Shown here: piece by piece, positions 5,970 through 13,404 of the stretch
Layout: every line of letters starts with the position of its first letter
How positions within the stretch are numbered: the first letter of the stretch is position 1
Source: an uncultured Candidatus Rokubacteria bacterium
GTDB lineage: Bacteria; Methylomirabilota; Methylomirabilia; Rokubacteriales; CSP1-6
Direction: 5' to 3'
Length of the DNA: 64,000 nucleotides
Assembly: GCA_963771355.1 (NCBI GenBank)
Contig: CAVYTA010000005.1
Location: forward strand, 928,001 to 992,000
The notes under the pieces: model-generated
What the model was told of the DNA's origin: nothing
Databases searched by the model: none
Seen by the model: the letters and a program-made list of their open reading frames with translations, nothing else
Translations under genes and position numbers: made by a program

Positions 5970-8023
5970 TTACGGACGCACGCAGTTGATGTAGGTCCAG
6001 CAGCAGCGGAACGCGTCCCGGCCGCCGAACAGCGTGTCCATCGCGTGGCGGATGAGGGCCAGCCGGTCGGCGACGGCTTCCCCCGCGGGCGCCTTGCCGT
6101 CGATCTTGGCGGAGCCGCCCACCCAGCCCAGCACCGCCTCGTGGTAGGCGCTGAGGAATTCGAACCAGTCGGCGACTTGGGCCTCGATGGAGCGCGCCCG
6201 ACGTCCTCCACCGCGAAGCCGGCTTGCTCGAGTTCGCGCAGGTAGAAGTCCAGCGGGCGCACCGGCAGGAACACCTGATCGCGGTGGGCGAGGTGCGCCT
6301 GGATGCGGGGCGCGTCGTCGAGCAGGGGCCGGTAGGCAGCATAGCGCGCTTCGTTGCGGACCAGACCGGTCGCGACCTCGTGGATGGCCCAAACCGTCTC
6401 GTCCAGGAGCCATTCACTGGGCCCGGCGTGGGGATTGCGGATATTGCCCGACTGTACGAAGGCGCGCCCGCCCGGCCGCAGCACGCGGGCCCAGGAGCCG
6501 AGGGTGTCGGCGAGGTCCCGGTACAGATGGATGGCGTTGGTGGAGGCGAGCACGTCCGCCTTGCGCGCCAGCAGCTCCGGCCCCATCACCTCCTCGAGGA
6601 GCTCGAGCCGCCGCGCCTCCTTGAGCCAGCGCAGGAGCCGGAAGCCGATGCGCTCCTCGCCGCCGAACTTGTCGAGGGCGACGCGGAGGAACTTGGGGGA
6701 GCTGTCCACGATCAGCGTCCCGACGTGGCGGTCGAAGATTCTCAGGTTGAGCCGATCGAGGAGGATCCCGGTGCCCCCCGAGTAGTCGATGAGGAGCTGG
6801 CCATCTTCGAGGTGGCGCGCCAGGTCCTCGACCGTCGGATCGAGGTTCCGGTACCAGCCGTGGTTCTCGACGGTGTCGTACCGGAGGCCGAAGGTGTCCA
6901 TGGGCTGCTGGACCCAGTCCTGCTCGGGAATGCGCGCGAAGCCGGAGGGCCACTGGAAGCGCCTCCGCGGCCCGCGCGCCGACTGGATGGGGGCGCTGAC
7001 GGCGGCGTGGATGCGCAGAAGATCCGGGATGGTGGCGGCCGGCCGCCGGCCCCAGCCGCACTCGGTGGCGACCCCGAATCCGGACACGAAGCGGTGGGCC
7101 GTCTCGATGCGGCGGCGCGTGCCCTCGACGCCGTCGGTGTGGTGCAGCAGACCCAGGTAGAGCTCGGTCTCGGCGCGCAGGCGGAGATCCCGCAGCGGCG
7201 CATAGTAAGCCTCGTCGAGCCGCTCCCGCGGGACGGGCAGGTGGATCCAGGTGAGGGGCCGCCCCAGGCTCGCCGCCAGCGCATTGGCGACCTCGACGAG
7301 CTTGCCCGCGTCGGCCGGCTCCTTGAAGTGGCGATGCTGGACGTCGCCGTAGCAGAGGTGATAGCCGAGCTGGACGTCCGGGGGCACGTGGCGCGAGATC
7401 CGGAGCAGCCGCTCCAGGATGCCGCCCTTGACGTCGCCGAACCAGACCGGGAACACCCCCTCCAGCATCCCGAGCTCGAAATTGGTATCCCACTGGATGG
7501 CGAGCTGATCGTGCGGCAATTCCTGGAGGATGGTCCGGAGCTCGCCGAGCACCTGCTCCTCGTAGACGGGCTCGAGGAGCTCCTGATGCTCGGGCACCAC
7601 GAAGGCGCTGATGGGGGCGAGCGGGGTGGGCAGACAGACCTGGAAGCGACAGGCCACCGGCACCACGCCGTCACGCTTGAGGCGCGCGAAGACCCGATAG
7701 GAGGACAGTGCCGCGTCCGCATACCCGAGGGCGCCAAAGGTCACGCTCTCCGCGCGCGCGCCGGCGGCCAGGCGGACGCGGGGCAACGGCCGCCAGCTGT
7801 CGGCGCCGGGCGGCACCACCTCGAGCTGGCGCTGGGTGGTGAAGACGGGCAGCTGCCACACGATCCAGTCGGACCGGGGGCCGGTCTCGCCGTCAGGGAT
7901 GCGGCGGAGGCGGTCGCCGATCTCATCGGCGACGGTGCGGAACACGGCCTCCGAGCTGGCCAGCGGCACGCTGCCGACCAGATGGGCGCCGGATGCCGCG
8001 AGATCGGGGGAGACGTTGCTCAT
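5970..8023 (-). CDS. Fusion of a MetE/UROD-like Zn domain and a class I SAM-dependent methyltransferase; one frameshift near 6200
   Basis: HLVGSVPL, PDGETG, GYHLCYGD, ATECGWGR, then IDYSGGTG, IVDSSPKFL, TNAIHLY, VLRPGG; C-terminus continues in ORF 5970..6413. Confidence 0.72.
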
Positions 8024-8106
8024 GACGGCTCCGAGCATCTGCCCAAAGCCAACCAGGGTCAAGACGGGCCAACGCAGCTCAAGGCGGCGCCGCGTCGCCG
8101 TCGCGC

Positions 8107-9615
8107 TCAGGCGTTGATGTTGGCCTCGAGGATTGCCGGCGACACCTTCCAGGCGGCGGCCGGCTCCGCCTCCAGCCGTCGCTGCAAGGCCTCCAGCTCC
8201 CGCTTGAACAGGCCGAACGCCTCGGCTCCCGCGGCGTCCAGCGCGAGATAGCCGAAGTCCTGGAGCAGCGGCGCCCGACGCACGTGCAGGTTGAAGTTCG
8301 CGTTGACCAGTCGCTGATACACGTCGAGGGGCTCGCGCTGGCCGCTCCGGTAGACCCGCACCGGCTGGACGTGGGTCCACATCTGATAGTTCCAGAGGCC
8401 CGTGCCGAGGATCTCGTGCTCCACCGTCCCCATGTAGATGAACGCGGCGACCAGCCGCGCCAGGGAGAGCACCGTGAGCACGTCGCCGATCAGCGGCCGG
8501 ATCCCGCCGGGCACAGTGCGCTCGAGGGTCTCCGCCCAGGCCGCCACCGCGTGATCGCCGCGCAACGCCGCGTCGGACGCGTAGTAGAGCGCCAGGTAGC
8601 GCCGCGCGTGCGCGTGCATCACGTCGAAGTGCGCGGCGCGGTTCGCCAGGGCGGGCGTGTCGAAGCCGGCCCCGGCGATGCCCCGGCGCTCCGCGTCGCG
8701 GTGGGGGTCGAGCCCGGTGATGTCGTAGGCCGGCCAGGTCTCCGTGAAGAGCCCGCACATCCCGCGGTGGGTGAAGCTGAAGATCGAGTCGAACTCGCCC
8801 CCCGGGGACATCTGGCCCTTGGTCACGAGCTCGTTGCTGAACTGGGTCCCGAACATGTGGGGCCAGAGCAGGCGCCGCAGCGGGTGGGCGGCCGGCAGGC
8901 AGCTCCGGGTCGCGATGGCGAGGAGCCCCCCCGCGGCGAGGTGCACCCAGTTGAAGTGCCGCACCAGGGAGACATCGGTGGTGGCCGCGCAGAGCGCGAG
9001 CCGCGTCGCCAGCGACCAGCTCGCGTCCCCGGGCACGTTCGTCCCGAGCTCGCTCTCGATCCGCGCCGCCTCCAGGCGGCGGGCCCCCGCGTTCACGTTG
9101 AACAGCACCCGCACGCCCAGGGAGCGCAGGCCTTGATGGTGCTCGTGGCGGGCGAGCCGCCGCAGGTCCCACTGGAAGCCGCCCTCCGGCGCCCGCTCCA
9201 CGTAGCAGGCGTAGGGCCCCGCGACGGCGAGCGACCCCAGGTCCACGGGCCCCTGGTACTCGGGCGGCAGCACGGGAGCGGGAAGGCACTTACGGTGGGC
9301 GGGGGTGTAGGCCTCGTCCAGGGCCTTGTGCGGATCCGCGTCGATGGCGGGCAGTCCCGGCTCCATGGGCGAGAGTCCACCATAGAGACCCACCTGCAAG
9401 TCGTAGAAGCGGGACTTGATCGCGGACGCCTCGTCGTCGGGCACATGGTCGCCGACGAGAACGTTCGCCACCGGGATTCGCGGGAACTGACTGGCGAGGC
9501 TCACCGCCCCGAGCGTTCGCCCGTCGTCCTGCGGCACCGGGATCCGCACCGGCTTGTTCGCGCCGAGCTTCAGGACTGCGAGCTTGTTCCAGACCGCCTT
9601 GCGGACCGTCCACAT
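8107..9615 (-). CDS. Lipoxygenase-family protein (compact catalytic domain)
   Basis: WSLAT...RHFNWVHL (HxxxxH), LPAAHPLRRLLWPH, TVEHEILG, C-terminal EANINA resembling the LOX end motif. Confidence 0.8.
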   Translation of the reverse strand: MWTVRKAVWNKLAVLKLGANKPVRIPVPQDDGRTLGAVSLASQFPRIPVANVLVGDHVPDDEASAIKSRFYDLQVGLYGGLSPMEPGLPAIDADPHKALDEAYTPAHRKCLPAPVLPPEYQGPVDLGSLAVAGPYACYVERAPEGGFQWDLRRLARHEHHQGLRSLGVRVLFNVNAGARRLEAARIESELGTNVPGDASWSLATRLALCAATTDVSLVRHFNWVHLAAGGLLAIATRSCLPAAHPLRRLLWPHMFGTQFSNELVTKGQMSPGGEFDSIFSFTHRGMCGLFTETWPAYDITGLDPHRDAERRGIAGAGFDTPALANRAAHFDVMHAHARRYLALYYASDAALRGDHAVAAWAETLERTVPGGIRPLIGDVLTVLSLARLVAAFIYMGTVEHEILGTGLWNYQMWTHVQPVRVYRSGQREPLDVYQRLVNANFNLHVRRAPLLQDFGYLALDAAGAEAFGLFKRELEALQRRLEAEPAAAWKVSPAILEANINA

Positions 9616-9625
9616 GGGGCGTGAC

Positions 9626-12430
9626 CTATCGCGCTTCCTTGAAGGCGCCGTCCGACTCGGCGCCGCGGCGCGGCTTCCACTCGAGCGAGTAGTATTCCCC
9701 GCGGTCACGGGCCCAGGGGTCGAACGCGTTGACCACGTGGTCCAGCTCCGGCGCCAGCTCGGGGATGGCCCGGAGCAGCACCCGCTTCAGCGGCGAGACC
9801 TCCATCTCGTGACCGTTGGGCTGGCCCTTCTCCATGCGCGAGTCGGGGCCGTTCTGGTTCACCCACTGCACGCCGAGGTGGGTGTAGAACTCCGGCCGGA
9901 AGCTGGAGGTGAAGAACCGGTCGCTGAACAGCCGGCGCGAGGCGTTGAGGATGAACACCTGGAACTGCGTCTCGGAGATGGCGAAGCCGTGGGGCCGGGG
10001 GAACTCCGCCAGCCAGCCGACCACGGTGTCGACGTCCTCGACGTTGTCGACGAGCGAGCCGTCGGGATGGCCGAGGCAATCGGTGATCCGGCTGCCGTCG
10101 GCGTTGACCTGCGCGTCGGTGATGACCTTGGACGCGTCGCACCGGTGCTGCCCGTAGACTTGCCGCAGCAGGCCCACCAGCCGCTCCTGCTCCAGCCGCT
10201 CGGGCGAGCCCTTGGCCAGGCGCGTGTCGACGAAGTCGTCGAAACGGGTGAGCTGGCGCAGCCCGTACTGCCGCCGGAACTCGTTGAAGCGCGGGACGCC
10301 GCGCTCGCGGTCCCGGATCAGGTCCAGCGCGGCGACGTCGATCTTGCCCGTCGCGCTCTGCAGCCGCGGCAGCTCGAGGTTCTGGAGGAACTGCGGGTGG
10401 TTCTGCAGGGTGAGGGCGCCCAGGCGCTGCCGGCCCATCGAGAGCGCCCAGCTCGCGAGCCCGCGCTCGCGCATCGCCTGGGTGGCGCGCCCGCGGAACG
10501 ACTCGACCACGGGGACCTTCATGCGCACCAGGTTGGGATCGGCGTCCCACTGCCGGTACTCGATCAGGTCGGGGACGAGGGCATGCAGGCGATAGACGGT
10601 GACGAACTCCTCCGGGAAGTTGAACGGCGAGCCGAAGTGGTTGACCCCGCCGTTGACGTGCTCCGGGTTGGCCAGGCTCCAGGGGGCGCCGTCGGTCGTC
10701 TTGCCGCTGCCCAGGCCGAAGATTCCGGGCCCGGACGCGAAGACCGAGTACCACTGCGTGGTGGCCTTCTCGTCCGTCGAGGTCCCGAGGCGGGCGGTGA
10801 TGCGCTCGAGCGCCCGCTCGACGAGCTCGCGGCCGCGGAAGAGCCCGTGCCAGTTGGCGTTCATGCCCAGGTAGAGTGGCTCGTCATAGAGGAGCTGCGG
10901 TGTCCATTCGGTGGTGTGGATCTTGGCGATCCCCGCCGAGACCACGAGCCGCGCGACCTCGAAGAGCTCGTCGGCGGTGATGTCCCGATAGCGGATGACC
11001 AGGGCCGGCCGGTCGGGGTGGCGGAGCCCGGAGTCGGCATCAGGCGTCGCCGCCGCCTGCGTGCGGAAGGCGTCGACGAAGAGGTTGTGCTCGCGGGCGA
11101 ACACCGTGTGGTAGAAGCTCATCCCGATCGTCCAGTTGTCCGGGAAGCCGGTGGCCTCCTGGCCCGCCCACTGCGGCAGCATGGGATCGGACGGCTCGAG
11201 CAGCGGCAGGTAGCCCTGCCGCTCACCCGCGCCCGCCCGCTGGCCGAGGGAGACCAGCAGGAGCTTCGCGGCATCGCTGGGCGCGCGCTTCACGCGGCGG
11301 CGGGATGTCTCGTCGTGGCCGTAGATCTGCGAGGCGTCCCACCACGCGGTCACGTTGTTGTGCGTGGTCCGGTATGGCCGCGCCAGGTGCTCCTTGCCGC
11401 CGTGGCTGAAGGTCGCCGGGTCGCCGCTCTCGGCGATGAGCGCGGGGTCCACGCGGTCGCCCGGGCGACACCCCTGCGACGCCGCCGCGCAGCCGACCGC
11501 CATCGTCCCCGGCCCGTTCCGTCCCTCCTGCAGGTGGGAGAACCAGTCGTGCGTCATGAACTGGATCCAGAACGCGGCAAGCACGTTGAAGAACGGCGCC
11601 TTCTTGTAGTCGCAGTGGGCGTCCGCCGGCGCGCCCGGCAGGCCGTGGCCCTCGCGGCAGCGCTCCGGCTGCGACTGCGCCCGCGTGAAGAGCGTGCGGC
11701 TGATCACCTGCGGGTCCGGCGTGAGCAGACCCAGCCGATCGCCGTGGCGGTTGCGGGCGAGCGCGTCCTTGCCCAGCTCGGGGAACGTCGCCTCGAACTG
11801 CACGTTGCGGGCGAACGGCTGCTGCGACGATCCCATCAGCGGGTTCGTGATGTCGTTGCAGAGGCCGGTCAGGTGGCGGAAGCGGATCTGCTCACTTCGG
11901 CACACTTGCGTCCCGTCGCCGCCCACCGCCTCGTAGAGCGCGTGCCCCTTGGGAAGCCGCATCGCGGGCCAGACTTTCAGCGCCCGCCCGGCCACACCGT
12001 CGCGCCCGCGCACATAGTCCGGGTACGTGCCGCTGCTGTCGAACAGGTTGAACTTGATCAGCTCGATGCGCTGATACTCGAGATCGAGGAGCGCGCCGTC
12101 GATGCCCCGGCCGTCGGCGTCGAGGTGACCGGTCCCCGATCCGGGGAAGCGGCTGCCCGCGTCACCCGTTGCCCAGTAGCTCTGCCAGTCGAGCCAGGGC
12201 ACGCCGCGCCACGCCACCGCCCGCTCGCCGCCCCGGCAGCGCGCGGTGTCCTCCTGGACCTTTCCGAGGAATCGCTCGGCGCGCTCCTCGCCGATGGGAC
12301 GAAGCCCGCCCAGCGCCAGCCCGAGGCAGGCATCGATGGTTTCCCGCTTGGCGGCACAGCCTGCGAGGGTTACGGCGACGGTGAGGGTCGCCACGAGGCC
12401 GGCGACGGCGGGCGAGCTGGACAGGAGCAT
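9626..12430 (-). CDS. Heme peroxidase-cyclooxygenase superfamily protein, fatty acid alpha-dioxygenase-like; putative lipoprotein
   Basis: WIQFMTHDW, TAWWDASQIYG, AKIHTTEW, EEFVTVYRLH, RDRERGVPRFNEFRR, GFAISET, ASRRLFSDRFFT; LAGC lipobox; AGGAGG RBS before ATG 12430. Confidence 0.87.
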   Translation of the reverse strand: MLLSSSPAVAGLVATLTVAVTLAGCAAKRETIDACLGLALGGLRPIGEERAERFLGKVQEDTARCRGGERAVAWRGVPWLDWQSYWATGDAGSRFPGSGTGHLDADGRGIDGALLDLEYQRIELIKFNLFDSSGTYPDYVRGRDGVAGRALKVWPAMRLPKGHALYEAVGGDGTQVCRSEQIRFRHLTGLCNDITNPLMGSSQQPFARNVQFEATFPELGKDALARNRHGDRLGLLTPDPQVISRTLFTRAQSQPERCREGHGLPGAPADAHCDYKKAPFFNVLAAFWIQFMTHDWFSHLQEGRNGPGTMAVGCAAASQGCRPGDRVDPALIAESGDPATFSHGGKEHLARPYRTTHNNVTAWWDASQIYGHDETSRRRVKRAPSDAAKLLLVSLGQRAGAGERQGYLPLLEPSDPMLPQWAGQEATGFPDNWTIGMSFYHTVFAREHNLFVDAFRTQAAATPDADSGLRHPDRPALVIRYRDITADELFEVARLVVSAGIAKIHTTEWTPQLLYDEPLYLGMNANWHGLFRGRELVERALERITARLGTSTDEKATTQWYSVFASGPGIFGLGSGKTTDGAPWSLANPEHVNGGVNHFGSPFNFPEEFVTVYRLHALVPDLIEYRQWDADPNLVRMKVPVVESFRGRATQAMRERGLASWALSMGRQRLGALTLQNHPQFLQNLELPRLQSATGKIDVAALDLIRDRERGVPRFNEFRRQYGLRQLTRFDDFVDTRLAKGSPERLEQERLVGLLRQVYGQHRCDASKVITDAQVNADGSRITDCLGHPDGSLVDNVEDVDTVVGWLAEFPRPHGFAISETQFQVFILNASRRLFSDRFFTSSFRPEFYTHLGVQWVNQNGPDSRMEKGQPNGHEMEVSPLKRVLLRAIPELAPELDHVVNAFDPWARDRGEYYSLEWKPRRGAESDGAFKEAR

Positions 12431-12552
12431 GGGGCACCTCCTACTTCGGGTCGGAGCGGCTGCGGAGATTCTATACTCGGGCGGAGGAAAGCGTGTCATC
12501 GCCGGTCGAACTTCGGGCGCTCGACCCCGCCCGGGTGCGCTAGGATCGCCCC

Positions 12553-13404
12553 ATGGTCGAGGTGCGGCGACTGGGTCCCCAGGTCGGGGCCGAGGTGCGG
12601 GGCGTCGACGTCCGGACGCTCGACGACGCCGGGTTCGCGGCGGTCTACCGCGCGTGGCTCGACTGCAACGTCCTCGTGATCCCGGAGCAGGACCTCGCGA
12701 TCGAGGACTTCCTGCGCTACAGCCGCCGCTTCGGGGTGATCCACCCGCACCCCTCGAAGATGACTCGACACCCCGAGCATCCCGAGATCACCCTGCTCGG
12801 GGTGGACAAGTTCGGGCCCGACGGCGCGCTCGACATGGCGATCTACCGGCGGGGCGCCGAGGGCTGGCACACCGACGGCGCCTACGACGAAGAGCCGTTC
12901 AAGGCCACCCAGCTCTACGCCCTTGCGGTGCCGAGCCGGGGCGGCGACACGCACTTCGCCAGCATGTACGCGGCGTACGACGCGCTGCCCGCGCCGCTGA
13001 AGGCGCGCCTCGAGGGCCGGCGCGGGGCCTTCACCTACGGCGGCCGTAAGAAGGCCACCGCCCTGCTCGACCAGGAGGACCGTGAGTGGACACCGGTCCA
13101 CCACCCGATCGTCCGGACGCACCCGGAGACCGGGCGGAAGGCGCTCTACTTCGATCCCGGCAAGATCCTGCGCATCGAGGGGGTGGAGGCGGCCGAGAGC
13201 GACGCGCTCATCGAGGAGCTCACCGAGCGCATGATCCAGCCCGGCGGCGAGTACACCCACCGCTGGCGCAAGGGAGACGTCGTCATCTGGGACAACCGCT
13301 GCTCCTACCACAAGGCGGCGGGCGACTACCCGCCCGAGGAAGACCGCATCCACTGGCGCGTGTCCATCAAGGAAAGCCCGGGCCCCTCGAGCGCAGCCGC
13401 CTGA
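12553..13404 (+). CDS. TauD/TfdA family dioxygenase
   Basis: WHTDG, GGDTHFA, HPIVRTHPETGRKALY, WDNRCSYH. Confidence 0.9.
   Translation: MVEVRRLGPQVGAEVRGVDVRTLDDAGFAAVYRAWLDCNVLVIPEQDLAIEDFLRYSRRFGVIHPHPSKMTRHPEHPEITLLGVDKFGPDGALDMAIYRRGAEGWHTDGAYDEEPFKATQLYALAVPSRGGDTHFASMYAAYDALPAPLKARLEGRRGAFTYGGRKKATALLDQEDREWTPVHHPIVRTHPETGRKALYFDPGKILRIEGVEAAESDALIEELTERMIQPGGEYTHRWRKGDVVIWDNRCSYHKAAGDYPPEEDRIHWRVSIKESPGPSSAAA

Follow-up and report, generated by a model that had tools for sequence, protein, structure and literature searches.

The 64,000-nucleotide window analyzed here (positions 928,001 to 992,000 of contig CAVYTA010000005.1, GenBank assembly GCA_963771355.1), from an uncultured Candidatus Rokubacteria bacterium, contains two adjacent genes predicted to encode a haem fatty-acid alpha-dioxygenase (DOX; gene A) and a lipoxygenase-fold (LOX-fold) metalloprotein (gene B). 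Both lie on the minus strand, with gene A (P0001, 9626..12430, 934 amino acids) upstream of gene B (P0002, 8107..9615, 502 amino acids) and a gap of exactly 10 nucleotides (9616..9625) between them, an arrangement that a first-pass annotation made from the sequence alone had described; the gap holds no terminator-like site. A Shine-Dalgarno-like AGGAGG (12437..12442, minus strand) is located 6 nucleotides ahead of the ATG of gene A, and a second in-frame ATG occurs upstream at 12499. The codon pattern of both genes was coding-like, with a G+C content of 0.94 at third (GC3) and 0.48 at second (GC2) codon positions. In Pfam, A matched An_peroxidase (1e-65) and B matched Lipoxygenase weakly (2e-7), both above the curated cut-off, which bears out the families first proposed; NCBIfam held no model matching either protein, and a promoter and terminator scan of the locus gave no signal above shuffled sequence. 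The host genome (5.5 Mb, 99.8% complete) carries each gene in a single copy, and the nearest homologues of B are found in Candidatus Rokubacteria records. The junction of the two genes is spanned by contigs from two other DNA runs (7865-9916 in X1 and 7152-9926 in X9), so the adjacency is no assembly artefact. Two rhizosphere metatranscriptomes yielded short contigs over A, B, and their flanks, which give neither strand nor level; in four further RNA runs the share was below 0.1.

Among solved structures, gene A product was matched best by the alpha-DOX of rice (1e-56) and Arabidopsis (8e-53), with the next match at 2e-6 and no cyclooxygenase (COX) structure at 1e-3. Every catalytic residue of the rice enzyme was retained in the alignment (rice numbering from the accessible text of PMC8720084): the distal haem ligand His294 (rice H157; 11549..11551), His505, Trp509, and Thr510 for positioning the carboxylate and alpha-carbon (H311, W315, and T316; 10901..10918), the catalytic radical Tyr613 with the proximal ligand His616 (Y379 and H382; 10583..10594), and the carboxylate-binding Arg833 (R559; 9932..9934), all encoded on the minus strand. 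The further pocket residues Phe609 (F375), Phe823 (F549), Phe826 (F552), Ile827 (I553), and Ala830 (A556) were kept as well. The motifs quoted in the first-pass annotation, FMTHDW, KIHTTEWT, VYRLH, and ASRRL, were located at residues 291, 503, 612, and 830. With this set of residues A resembles the plant and cyanobacterial alpha-DOXs (rice 4KVJ, Arabidopsis 4HHR, CalDOX, and LepDOX), from which it differs by about 300 additional amino acids, an N-terminal lipobox, and insertions; it belongs to a long bacterial clade. By sequence, A is classified as a haem enzyme of the alpha-DOX type, nearer to alpha-DOX than to COX or MPO, and it likely makes 2-hydroperoxy fatty acids as alpha-DOX does. By inspection, its N terminus carries a predicted lipoprotein signal, a hydrophobic stretch leading to the lipobox LAG-C25 (12356..12430, minus strand). 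Since a similar L-x-G-C box is present in most Rokubacteria homologues of the long clade and an N-terminal hydrophobic anchor in the Rhodobacterales ones, the long DOX clade, including A, is probably exported.

The AlphaFold model of gene B product (predicted local distance difference test [pLDDT] 96.9, predicted TM-score [pTM] 0.95) superposed on the catalytic domains of LOXs, starting at residue 27-29 and extending to its final residue; the protein comprises the catalytic domain alone, with an N-terminal Trp/basic helix. A Foldseek match to LOX was obtained at E 2e-16, and comparison with solved LOXs gave Z-scores up to 32.6 over 446 residues at 3.0 Å and 16-20% identity, with a TM-score of 0.7 and Z of 30-32 for Cyanothece CspLOX2 (5MED), Pseudomonas aeruginosa LOX (4G33), and Enhygromyxa LOX (8X8F). 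In the ESM Atlas, B matched only Lipoxygenase-labelled clusters, at a low recognition score, and members of its family carry the database annotation "arachidonate 15-lipoxygenase." In a set of 50%-identity clusters, the family of proteins of about 502 amino acids had 166 representatives (E ≤ 1e-30); at E ≤ 1e-5 it comprised at least 944 clusters (8000 scored), a figure that may include more distant LOXs. No signal peptide was seen in B. A twin-arginine translocation (Tat) signal, considered for the start W-x-L-R-R-x-F-W, was rejected, as the motif is not followed by a hydrophobic region and lies inside the chain in fusion proteins.

The active site was surveyed in 210 aligned B-family sequences. 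The three histidine metal ligands, His220 and His225 of the HxxxxH motif (8941..8958) and His400, encoded together with the fourth-ligand site at 8404..8418, were each invariant (210/210); the site occupied by a fourth ligand Asn, His, or Ser in LOXs was Gly404, likewise in 210/210. The C terminus reads Ile-Asn-Ala (8110..8118), and Ala502 superposes on the terminal carboxylate ligand of solved LOXs. In the family the terminal residue was Ala in 200, Gly in 9, and Thr in 1 sequence and never Ile; in a more diverse set, one of 92 sequences ended in Ile. Alignment of wild-type CspLOX2 and its L304V and L304F variants set the register of the Coffa and leucine-clamp sites (8812..8826), with A300 at Val264 and L304 at Gln268; soybean A542 and L546 show the same spacing, and the Coffa residue of 11R-LOX is Gly. 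This site, Ala or Gly in canonical LOX, was Val in 169 and Ile in 21 (190 together), Ala in 8, Gly in 5, and another residue in 7 of the family, and the clamp site was Gln in 187/210 and Leu in 18/210. Four residues before the first His, Ser216 was found in 199/210, where three solved LOXs have Glu or Gln, and three residues after the fourth-ligand site a Leu, Met, or Val (position 407) in 209/210, where Gln stands in the two solved LOXs that align at this point; both sites have a second-sphere role in LOX. The polar residues Tyr410, Gln411, Asn438, and Asn501 were invariant. All these codons lie on the minus strand.

In a 2026 review, all LOXs are described as having three His together with either His, Asn, or Ser, as well as a terminal Ile, rarely Val (PMC13059375, accessible text), and full conservation of the leucine clamp is reported elsewhere for canonical iron LOX, its substitution costing 20- to 100-fold in rate (PMC12383934, 2025, accessible text). 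Judged by its residues, B fails four sequence criteria of canonical LOX (fourth ligand, terminal residue, leucine clamp, and Coffa site) and departs from it at six active-site positions in total, while the metal site remains under strong constraint. Of the "lipoxygenase His scaffold" noted at first, the fold and the three His stood; with six active-site departures, a working lipoxygenase is not supported as stated. A separate outer clade of LOX-like proteins (P0160-P0231, L008/L139; 23-31% identity) had Gly at ligand 4 in 9/14 and Ser, Thr, Ala, and other residues at the C terminus; it includes a protein of Candidatus Finniella inopinata and a Klebsormidium transcriptome entry, and its member in genome G166 also adjoins a long DOX.

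The linkage of the two genes was followed by tblastn in species genomes, for which the best 80 of 106 B relatives were used as genome loci. These belong to Rokubacteria, Acidobacteriota, Actinomycetota, Pseudomonadota, Nitrospirota, Verrucomicrobiota, Bacteroidota, and one Clostridia bin, and the hosts include Nitrospira (NS4), marine Sulfitobacter (EhC04 and DFL-14), Pseudonocardia, Geodermatophilus, and soil Acidobacteria. A DOX gene lay within 7 kb of B in 71/80 loci, from seven phyla, so that the adjacency is not due to chance; it was upstream and co-oriented in 54, downstream and co-oriented in 10, divergent in 5, and convergent in 2. Among the nine loci without an adjacent DOX, three had short flanks, one had a DOX 12 kb off, and five had An_peroxidase elsewhere in the genome. 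In metagenomes, 57/80 loci had a linked DOX, rising to 12/14 where at least 3 kb was available on both sides. Both Pfam families also occurred in one chain in P0123, P0125, P0126, P0127, P0135, P0141, and L090 and in single frames of 1753 or 1773 codons in Nitrospiraceae G332 and G256. These fusions fall on separate branches of the B tree, some joined directly and others via hydrophobic Gly-rich linkers. The predicted fold of the natural fusion P0123 showed two well-folded domains (pLDDT 86.5, pTM 0.60, mostly unpaired alignment). A third conserved domain, considered for the long Nitrospira-type fusions, was rejected, the linker being Gly-rich with several hydrophobic segments and no catalase. 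The pairing is thus conserved in other genomes, on which the first-pass annotation had made its reading depend.

The DOX partners of B formed three well-supported deep clades (long, TPR-bearing, and short) in a tree of 99 sequences, from which 15 of 114 rows had been dropped as partial; the trees were "quick" and FastTree ones, unrooted and with long-branch warnings. The two clades other than that of A matched alpha-DOX at 3e-163 and 4e-107 and COX-2 at 1e-27 and 5e-14; A and all partner clades are therefore closest to alpha-DOX, and the peroxidase did not cluster with non-dioxygenase clades. On the B tree, the partner clade changed at least seven times across 77 labelled rows, with the 9 DOX-less loci and 6 outgroups unlabelled, and B proteins 63-75% identical to that of the window were paired with all three DOX clades. 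These partner data may be read as selection for "a DOX" beside B, not as one inherited cassette. The distal His was replaced in 25/99 DOX sequences (Gly in 12, Arg in 9, Ser in 3, and Asn in 1), all from B-carrying genomes and clustered in few lineages.

The relation between the two genes was asymmetric: A often occurs without B, and B rarely occurs without A. In the host phylum, the B family was found at E ≤ 1e-30 in 8/251 genomes, all with DOX (adjacent in 6, about 12 kb away in 2), and DOX matches in 35/251; none of the seven congeners of the host carried B. A ninth genome of the phylum with a LOX match, beyond the eight with the B family, is that of L009 (G187:C123), another genome of the Rokubacteria family, which has an ordinary lipoxygenase (HAAVNF motif, Pfam 9e-33) on a contig other than its DOX. 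In a sample of 251 genomes of the Nitrospira family, 32 had B, at least 20 of them DOX-adjacent, and B adjoined 16 of 18 full-length matches to An_peroxidase (E ≤ 1e-95).

The wider neighbourhood of the pair in the 80 genome loci included cyclase/AAA/TPR sensors (22), a RoxA-like di-haem cytochrome (17), DyP peroxidase (13), patatin (10), GAF histidine kinase (10), a catalase-like gene (9), and FadL (5), and at least one lipid or peroxide gene stood beside the pair in 39/80. The RoxA-like gene was located directly downstream of B. In the Nitrospira family (L157, L158, and L161), the order was FadL, patatin, DOX, B, RoxA-like di-haem cytochrome, and GAF histidine kinase; two of these three loci had DOX and B fused through a hydrophobic linker, and in L157 a second, long-clade DOX was situated just downstream. 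The sensor genes, encoding adenylate/guanylate cyclase-AAA-TPR (STAND-like) or BTAD-AAA proteins, were distributed across Actinomycetota and Pseudomonadota (22 of L015-L094); genes of this kind abound in those genomes and no enrichment is claimed. In family f2 of the host phylum, seven long-clade DOXs without B have a DyP peroxidase as neighbour, and in six cases there is a catalase-like gene as well (L131-L137 and L140, excluding L138/L139). Beside these DyP and catalase-like genes the f2 loci also encode a 218-amino-acid protein without a Pfam match, and a protein of the same type was found with DyP upstream of a Rhodobacterales DOX-B pair. A catalase-like, TPR, and alpha-DOX fusion lay directly upstream of B in L048 (370-3822) and L049 (26-3484), its catalase-like part 63-65% identical to the stand-alone neighbours in L051 and L064. 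In L085 (5258-8488) and L086 (5462-8473; P0133), DyP was fused to the N terminus of B and followed by a TPR-type DOX and patatin. Of the roles suggested at first, signalling gained sensor genes among the neighbours and no support beyond the neighbourhood; an attack on plant or fungal lipids gained no specific support, the hosts including Nitrospira, marine Sulfitobacter, and soil Acidobacteria.

In the window itself, the pair is a minimal module, flanked by none of the lipid, peroxide, or sensor extras of other loci. Downstream of B, after an 83-nucleotide gap, a gene at 8023..5970 (minus strand) encodes a methyltransferase domain joined to a long N-terminal domain without a Pfam match. Its reading frame shifts near 6198-6199, where the contigs of all four compared runs have one extra base, and the frameshift is probably an assembly error. 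Divergent from A, a TauD/TfdA-family dioxygenase gene is located at 12553..13404 (plus strand). Neither gene was a recurrent neighbour of the pair in the surveyed loci.

The genes of both families have been described separately. Alpha-DOX genes were already reported in Proteobacteria, Actinobacteria, Acidobacteria, and Bacteroidetes by a survey that set aside sequences of >1000 amino acids and in whose accessible text the word "lipoxygenase" is absent (PMC8720084); the LOX partner and the fusions therefore lie outside the coverage of that text. Nine bacterial LOX clusters (Chrisnasari 2022) are cited in the accessible text of the 2026 bacterial LOX review PMC13319228, in which "alpha-dioxygenase," "peroxidase," and "operon" do not occur; "peroxidase" and "dioxygenase" do not occur in the accessible text of a preprint on bacterial LOXs. 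A literature search, with most subscription papers outside its scope, found no published description of an alpha-DOX/LOX-fold pair or of a LOX-fold family with such a site, in agreement with the initial remark that no characterized operon pairs the two. With the iron LOXs lacking a PLAT domain (5MED, 4G33, and 8X8F), B shares the catalytic-domain fold, HxxxxH, the third His, and the C-terminal carboxylate position, and it differs from them at the fourth ligand (Gly in place of Asn), the terminus (Ala in place of Ile), the Coffa site (Val in place of Ala/Gly), the leucine clamp (Gln), and the second sphere (Ser in place of Glu/Gln, Leu in place of Gln), and by being tied to an alpha-DOX. The class II fungal "lipoxygenases" are likewise a natural LOX-fold subfamily with a bound metal, a substituted clamp, and poor LOX activity, but these are Mn enzymes with a Cys clamp, not Gln, and no DOX linkage is given in the accessible text (PMC12383934). 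Two-step oxylipin logic in pairs or fusions is known from the 10S-DOX and catalase-related lyase of Nostoc punctiforme and the fungal fusions of DOX with cytochrome P450 (CYP) (PMC13049297, accessible text), and from the coral catalase-LOX fusion (3dy5). None of these systems joins an alpha-DOX to a LOX-fold protein, and, unlike in them, catalase-like, DyP, and di-haem genes are optional extras of the A-B pair. The logic of a dioxygenase with a hydroperoxide-converting partner is thus already known; the combination of alpha-DOX and a LOX fold is likely undescribed.

The reading we favour, while giving it a little less than an even chance, is that A makes a 2-hydroperoxy fatty acid and that B converts this hydroperoxide instead of oxygenating polyunsaturated fatty acids. 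That B acts on the product of A is suggested by its dependence on A, its re-pairing with distinct DOX clades, and its altered site. In the first step, A would form the (R)-2-hydroperoxy acid via the Tyr613 radical, like the plant and cyanobacterial alpha-DOXs, whose unstable product decarboxylates spontaneously or is reduced (PMC9305512 and PMC4490225, accessible text). In the second, ferrous B would cleave the O-O bond in the manner of a hydroperoxide isomerase, an activity of the LOX fold favoured by limited O2 access (PMC13319228, section 7, accessible text). Val at the Coffa site would limit O2 in B, and Gly at the fourth-ligand site and Gln at the clamp would accommodate and bind the polar alpha-hydroperoxy-carboxylate head. 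Homolysis of the O-O bond would yield either a 2-oxo acid or an aldehyde with CO2. Probable products are the chain-shortened aldehyde with CO2, from an otherwise spontaneous reaction that B would catalyze, or the 2-oxo or 2-hydroxy acid. A precedent for a LOX fold acting on the hydroperoxide of a partner is mammalian eLOX3 (PMC13059375, section 12, accessible text), which acts after 12R-LOX; the proposed likeness lies in the conversion under limited O2, and B would differ in having a haem alpha-DOX as the partner and a 2-hydroperoxy acid, not an allylic hydroperoxide, as the substrate. Where lipase, FadL, and sensor genes accompany the pair, the product may be a signal derived from imported or released fatty acids. 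The DyP and catalase-like neighbours of B-less DOXs, other peroxide-consuming haem proteins, were counted in favour of this reading.

Several observations weigh against hydroperoxide conversion by B. Alpha-DOX products decarboxylate spontaneously, so a second enzyme is not required. The Leu clamp is kept by the 18 family members mentioned above, some of them about 73-76% identical to B, so that the Gln clamp is not essential and pentadiene positioning may survive. The structure of a soybean N694G LOX exists (1y4k, among the structural matches of B), and this variant is reportedly partly active, so that Gly by itself is compatible with LOX activity. A B sub-lineage with Asp at the fourth-ligand site was found in 4/80 metagenome loci (L221, L222, L226, and L237). 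The catalase-like gene (9/80) and DyP (13/80) already stand beside the pair, and B is therefore not simply interchangeable with them. Seven Nitrospiraceae (L055, L058, and L162-L166) had B with a sensor kinase and FadL and no DOX in the stretch read, six of them with a long-type DOX match elsewhere in the genome; in that family the co-occurrence of B with An_peroxidase (30/32) is weak against a background of 134/251. The loci are kin and not independent. Finally, A appears from its signal to be exported and B does not; in the host, where A is probably exported as a lipoprotein while B stays in the cytoplasm, any coupling would rely on diffusion across the membrane and not on a complex.

Some of these points are the chief grounds for the main alternative, also the view of the first-pass annotation, in which B is a true, if unusual, LOX, with A and B oxygenating the same fatty acids in parallel or in series to doubly oxygenated oxylipins, or with B oxygenating the unsaturated aldehyde or 2-hydroxy acid derived from A. 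The Leu clamp in 18/210 and a Gly fourth ligand that need not abolish activity count for it, as do the full LOX fold (Z 32, about 450 residues at 3.0 Å), the retained three His and terminal carboxylate position, the patatin lipases (10/80) and FadL (5/80) that would supply external fatty acids, and the RNA contigs of close relatives from rhizosphere samples. We nevertheless regard it as rather unlikely, though still a serious contender, given the six departures of the active site and the poor or absent LOX activity that accompanies natural clamp substitution in the fungal subfamily (PMC12383934, accessible text). Moreover, a stand-alone LOX would need neither to stay beside nor to re-acquire an alpha-DOX, and the only two desaturases of the host genome are short and below the DesA family model cut-off, their class not settled.

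That B acts upstream, producing or handling a lipid hydroperoxide for priming the haem-Tyr radical of A or for reduction by the haem of A as in the coral catalase-LOX fusion, would fit the replaced distal His in 25/99 DOXs, all from B-carrying genomes, and the need of both enzyme types for peroxide activation. This is improbable, however: 52 LOX-adjacent DOXs including A keep the distal His, the substitutions are confined to few lineages, partial conservation of this residue across alpha-DOX was already reported (PMC8720084, accessible text), and A is often encountered without B. Were B another O2-using enzyme of alpha-oxidation in bacteria, such as an Fe(II) enzyme that oxidatively decarboxylates 2-hydroxy or 2-oxo fatty acids, its dependence on A would be accounted for equally well, and the pair would be catabolic, serving chain shortening and not signalling. 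With its open coordination site and invariant polar residues, B might bind an alpha-oxygenated acid in bidentate fashion; the Val of the Coffa site, on the other hand, suggests reduced O2 access, and among the scanned recurrent neighbours, which are sensors and peroxide-handling haem proteins, there was no aldehyde dehydrogenase, acyl-CoA ligase, or beta-oxidation gene, leaving this reading only a slim chance. Patchy distribution (8/251 genomes of the phylum, 0/7 congeners), variable flanking genes, and the likely different compartments of A and B in the host would suit a mobile "lipid-oxidation island" with shared regulation and no substrate flow. In-frame fusions recurring on separate B-tree branches, four gene arrangements, and at least seven partner changes make such an island very improbable.

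Whatever its reaction, the B family departs from the ligand set (PMC13059375) and the leucine clamp (PMC12383934) that the accessible texts of these papers state as universal or conserved for LOX. With somewhat more reserve than for the conversion step itself, B may be taken to represent a new enzyme class, in which a LOX fold would have been turned into a 2-hydroperoxy-acid lyase or isomerase dedicated to alpha-dioxygenases. Together with lipase, FadL, the di-haem enzyme, and the GAF kinase or STAND cyclase, it might form a bacterial system, spread across phyla, by which alpha-oxidised lipid signals are produced and sensed; the hosts would include uncultured soil Rokubacteria and nitrite-oxidising Nitrospira. 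The pair is directly testable in the cultured, non-pathogenic hosts Sulfitobacter EhC04 and DFL-14, Pseudonocardia, Geodermatophilus, and Nitrospira NS4. If B processes 2-hydroperoxy acids, a step regarded as spontaneous would have its own enzyme, and B could also steer the yield of aldehyde versus hydroxy acid in alpha-DOX biocatalysis and would provide a handle on the purpose of bacterial alpha-DOX.

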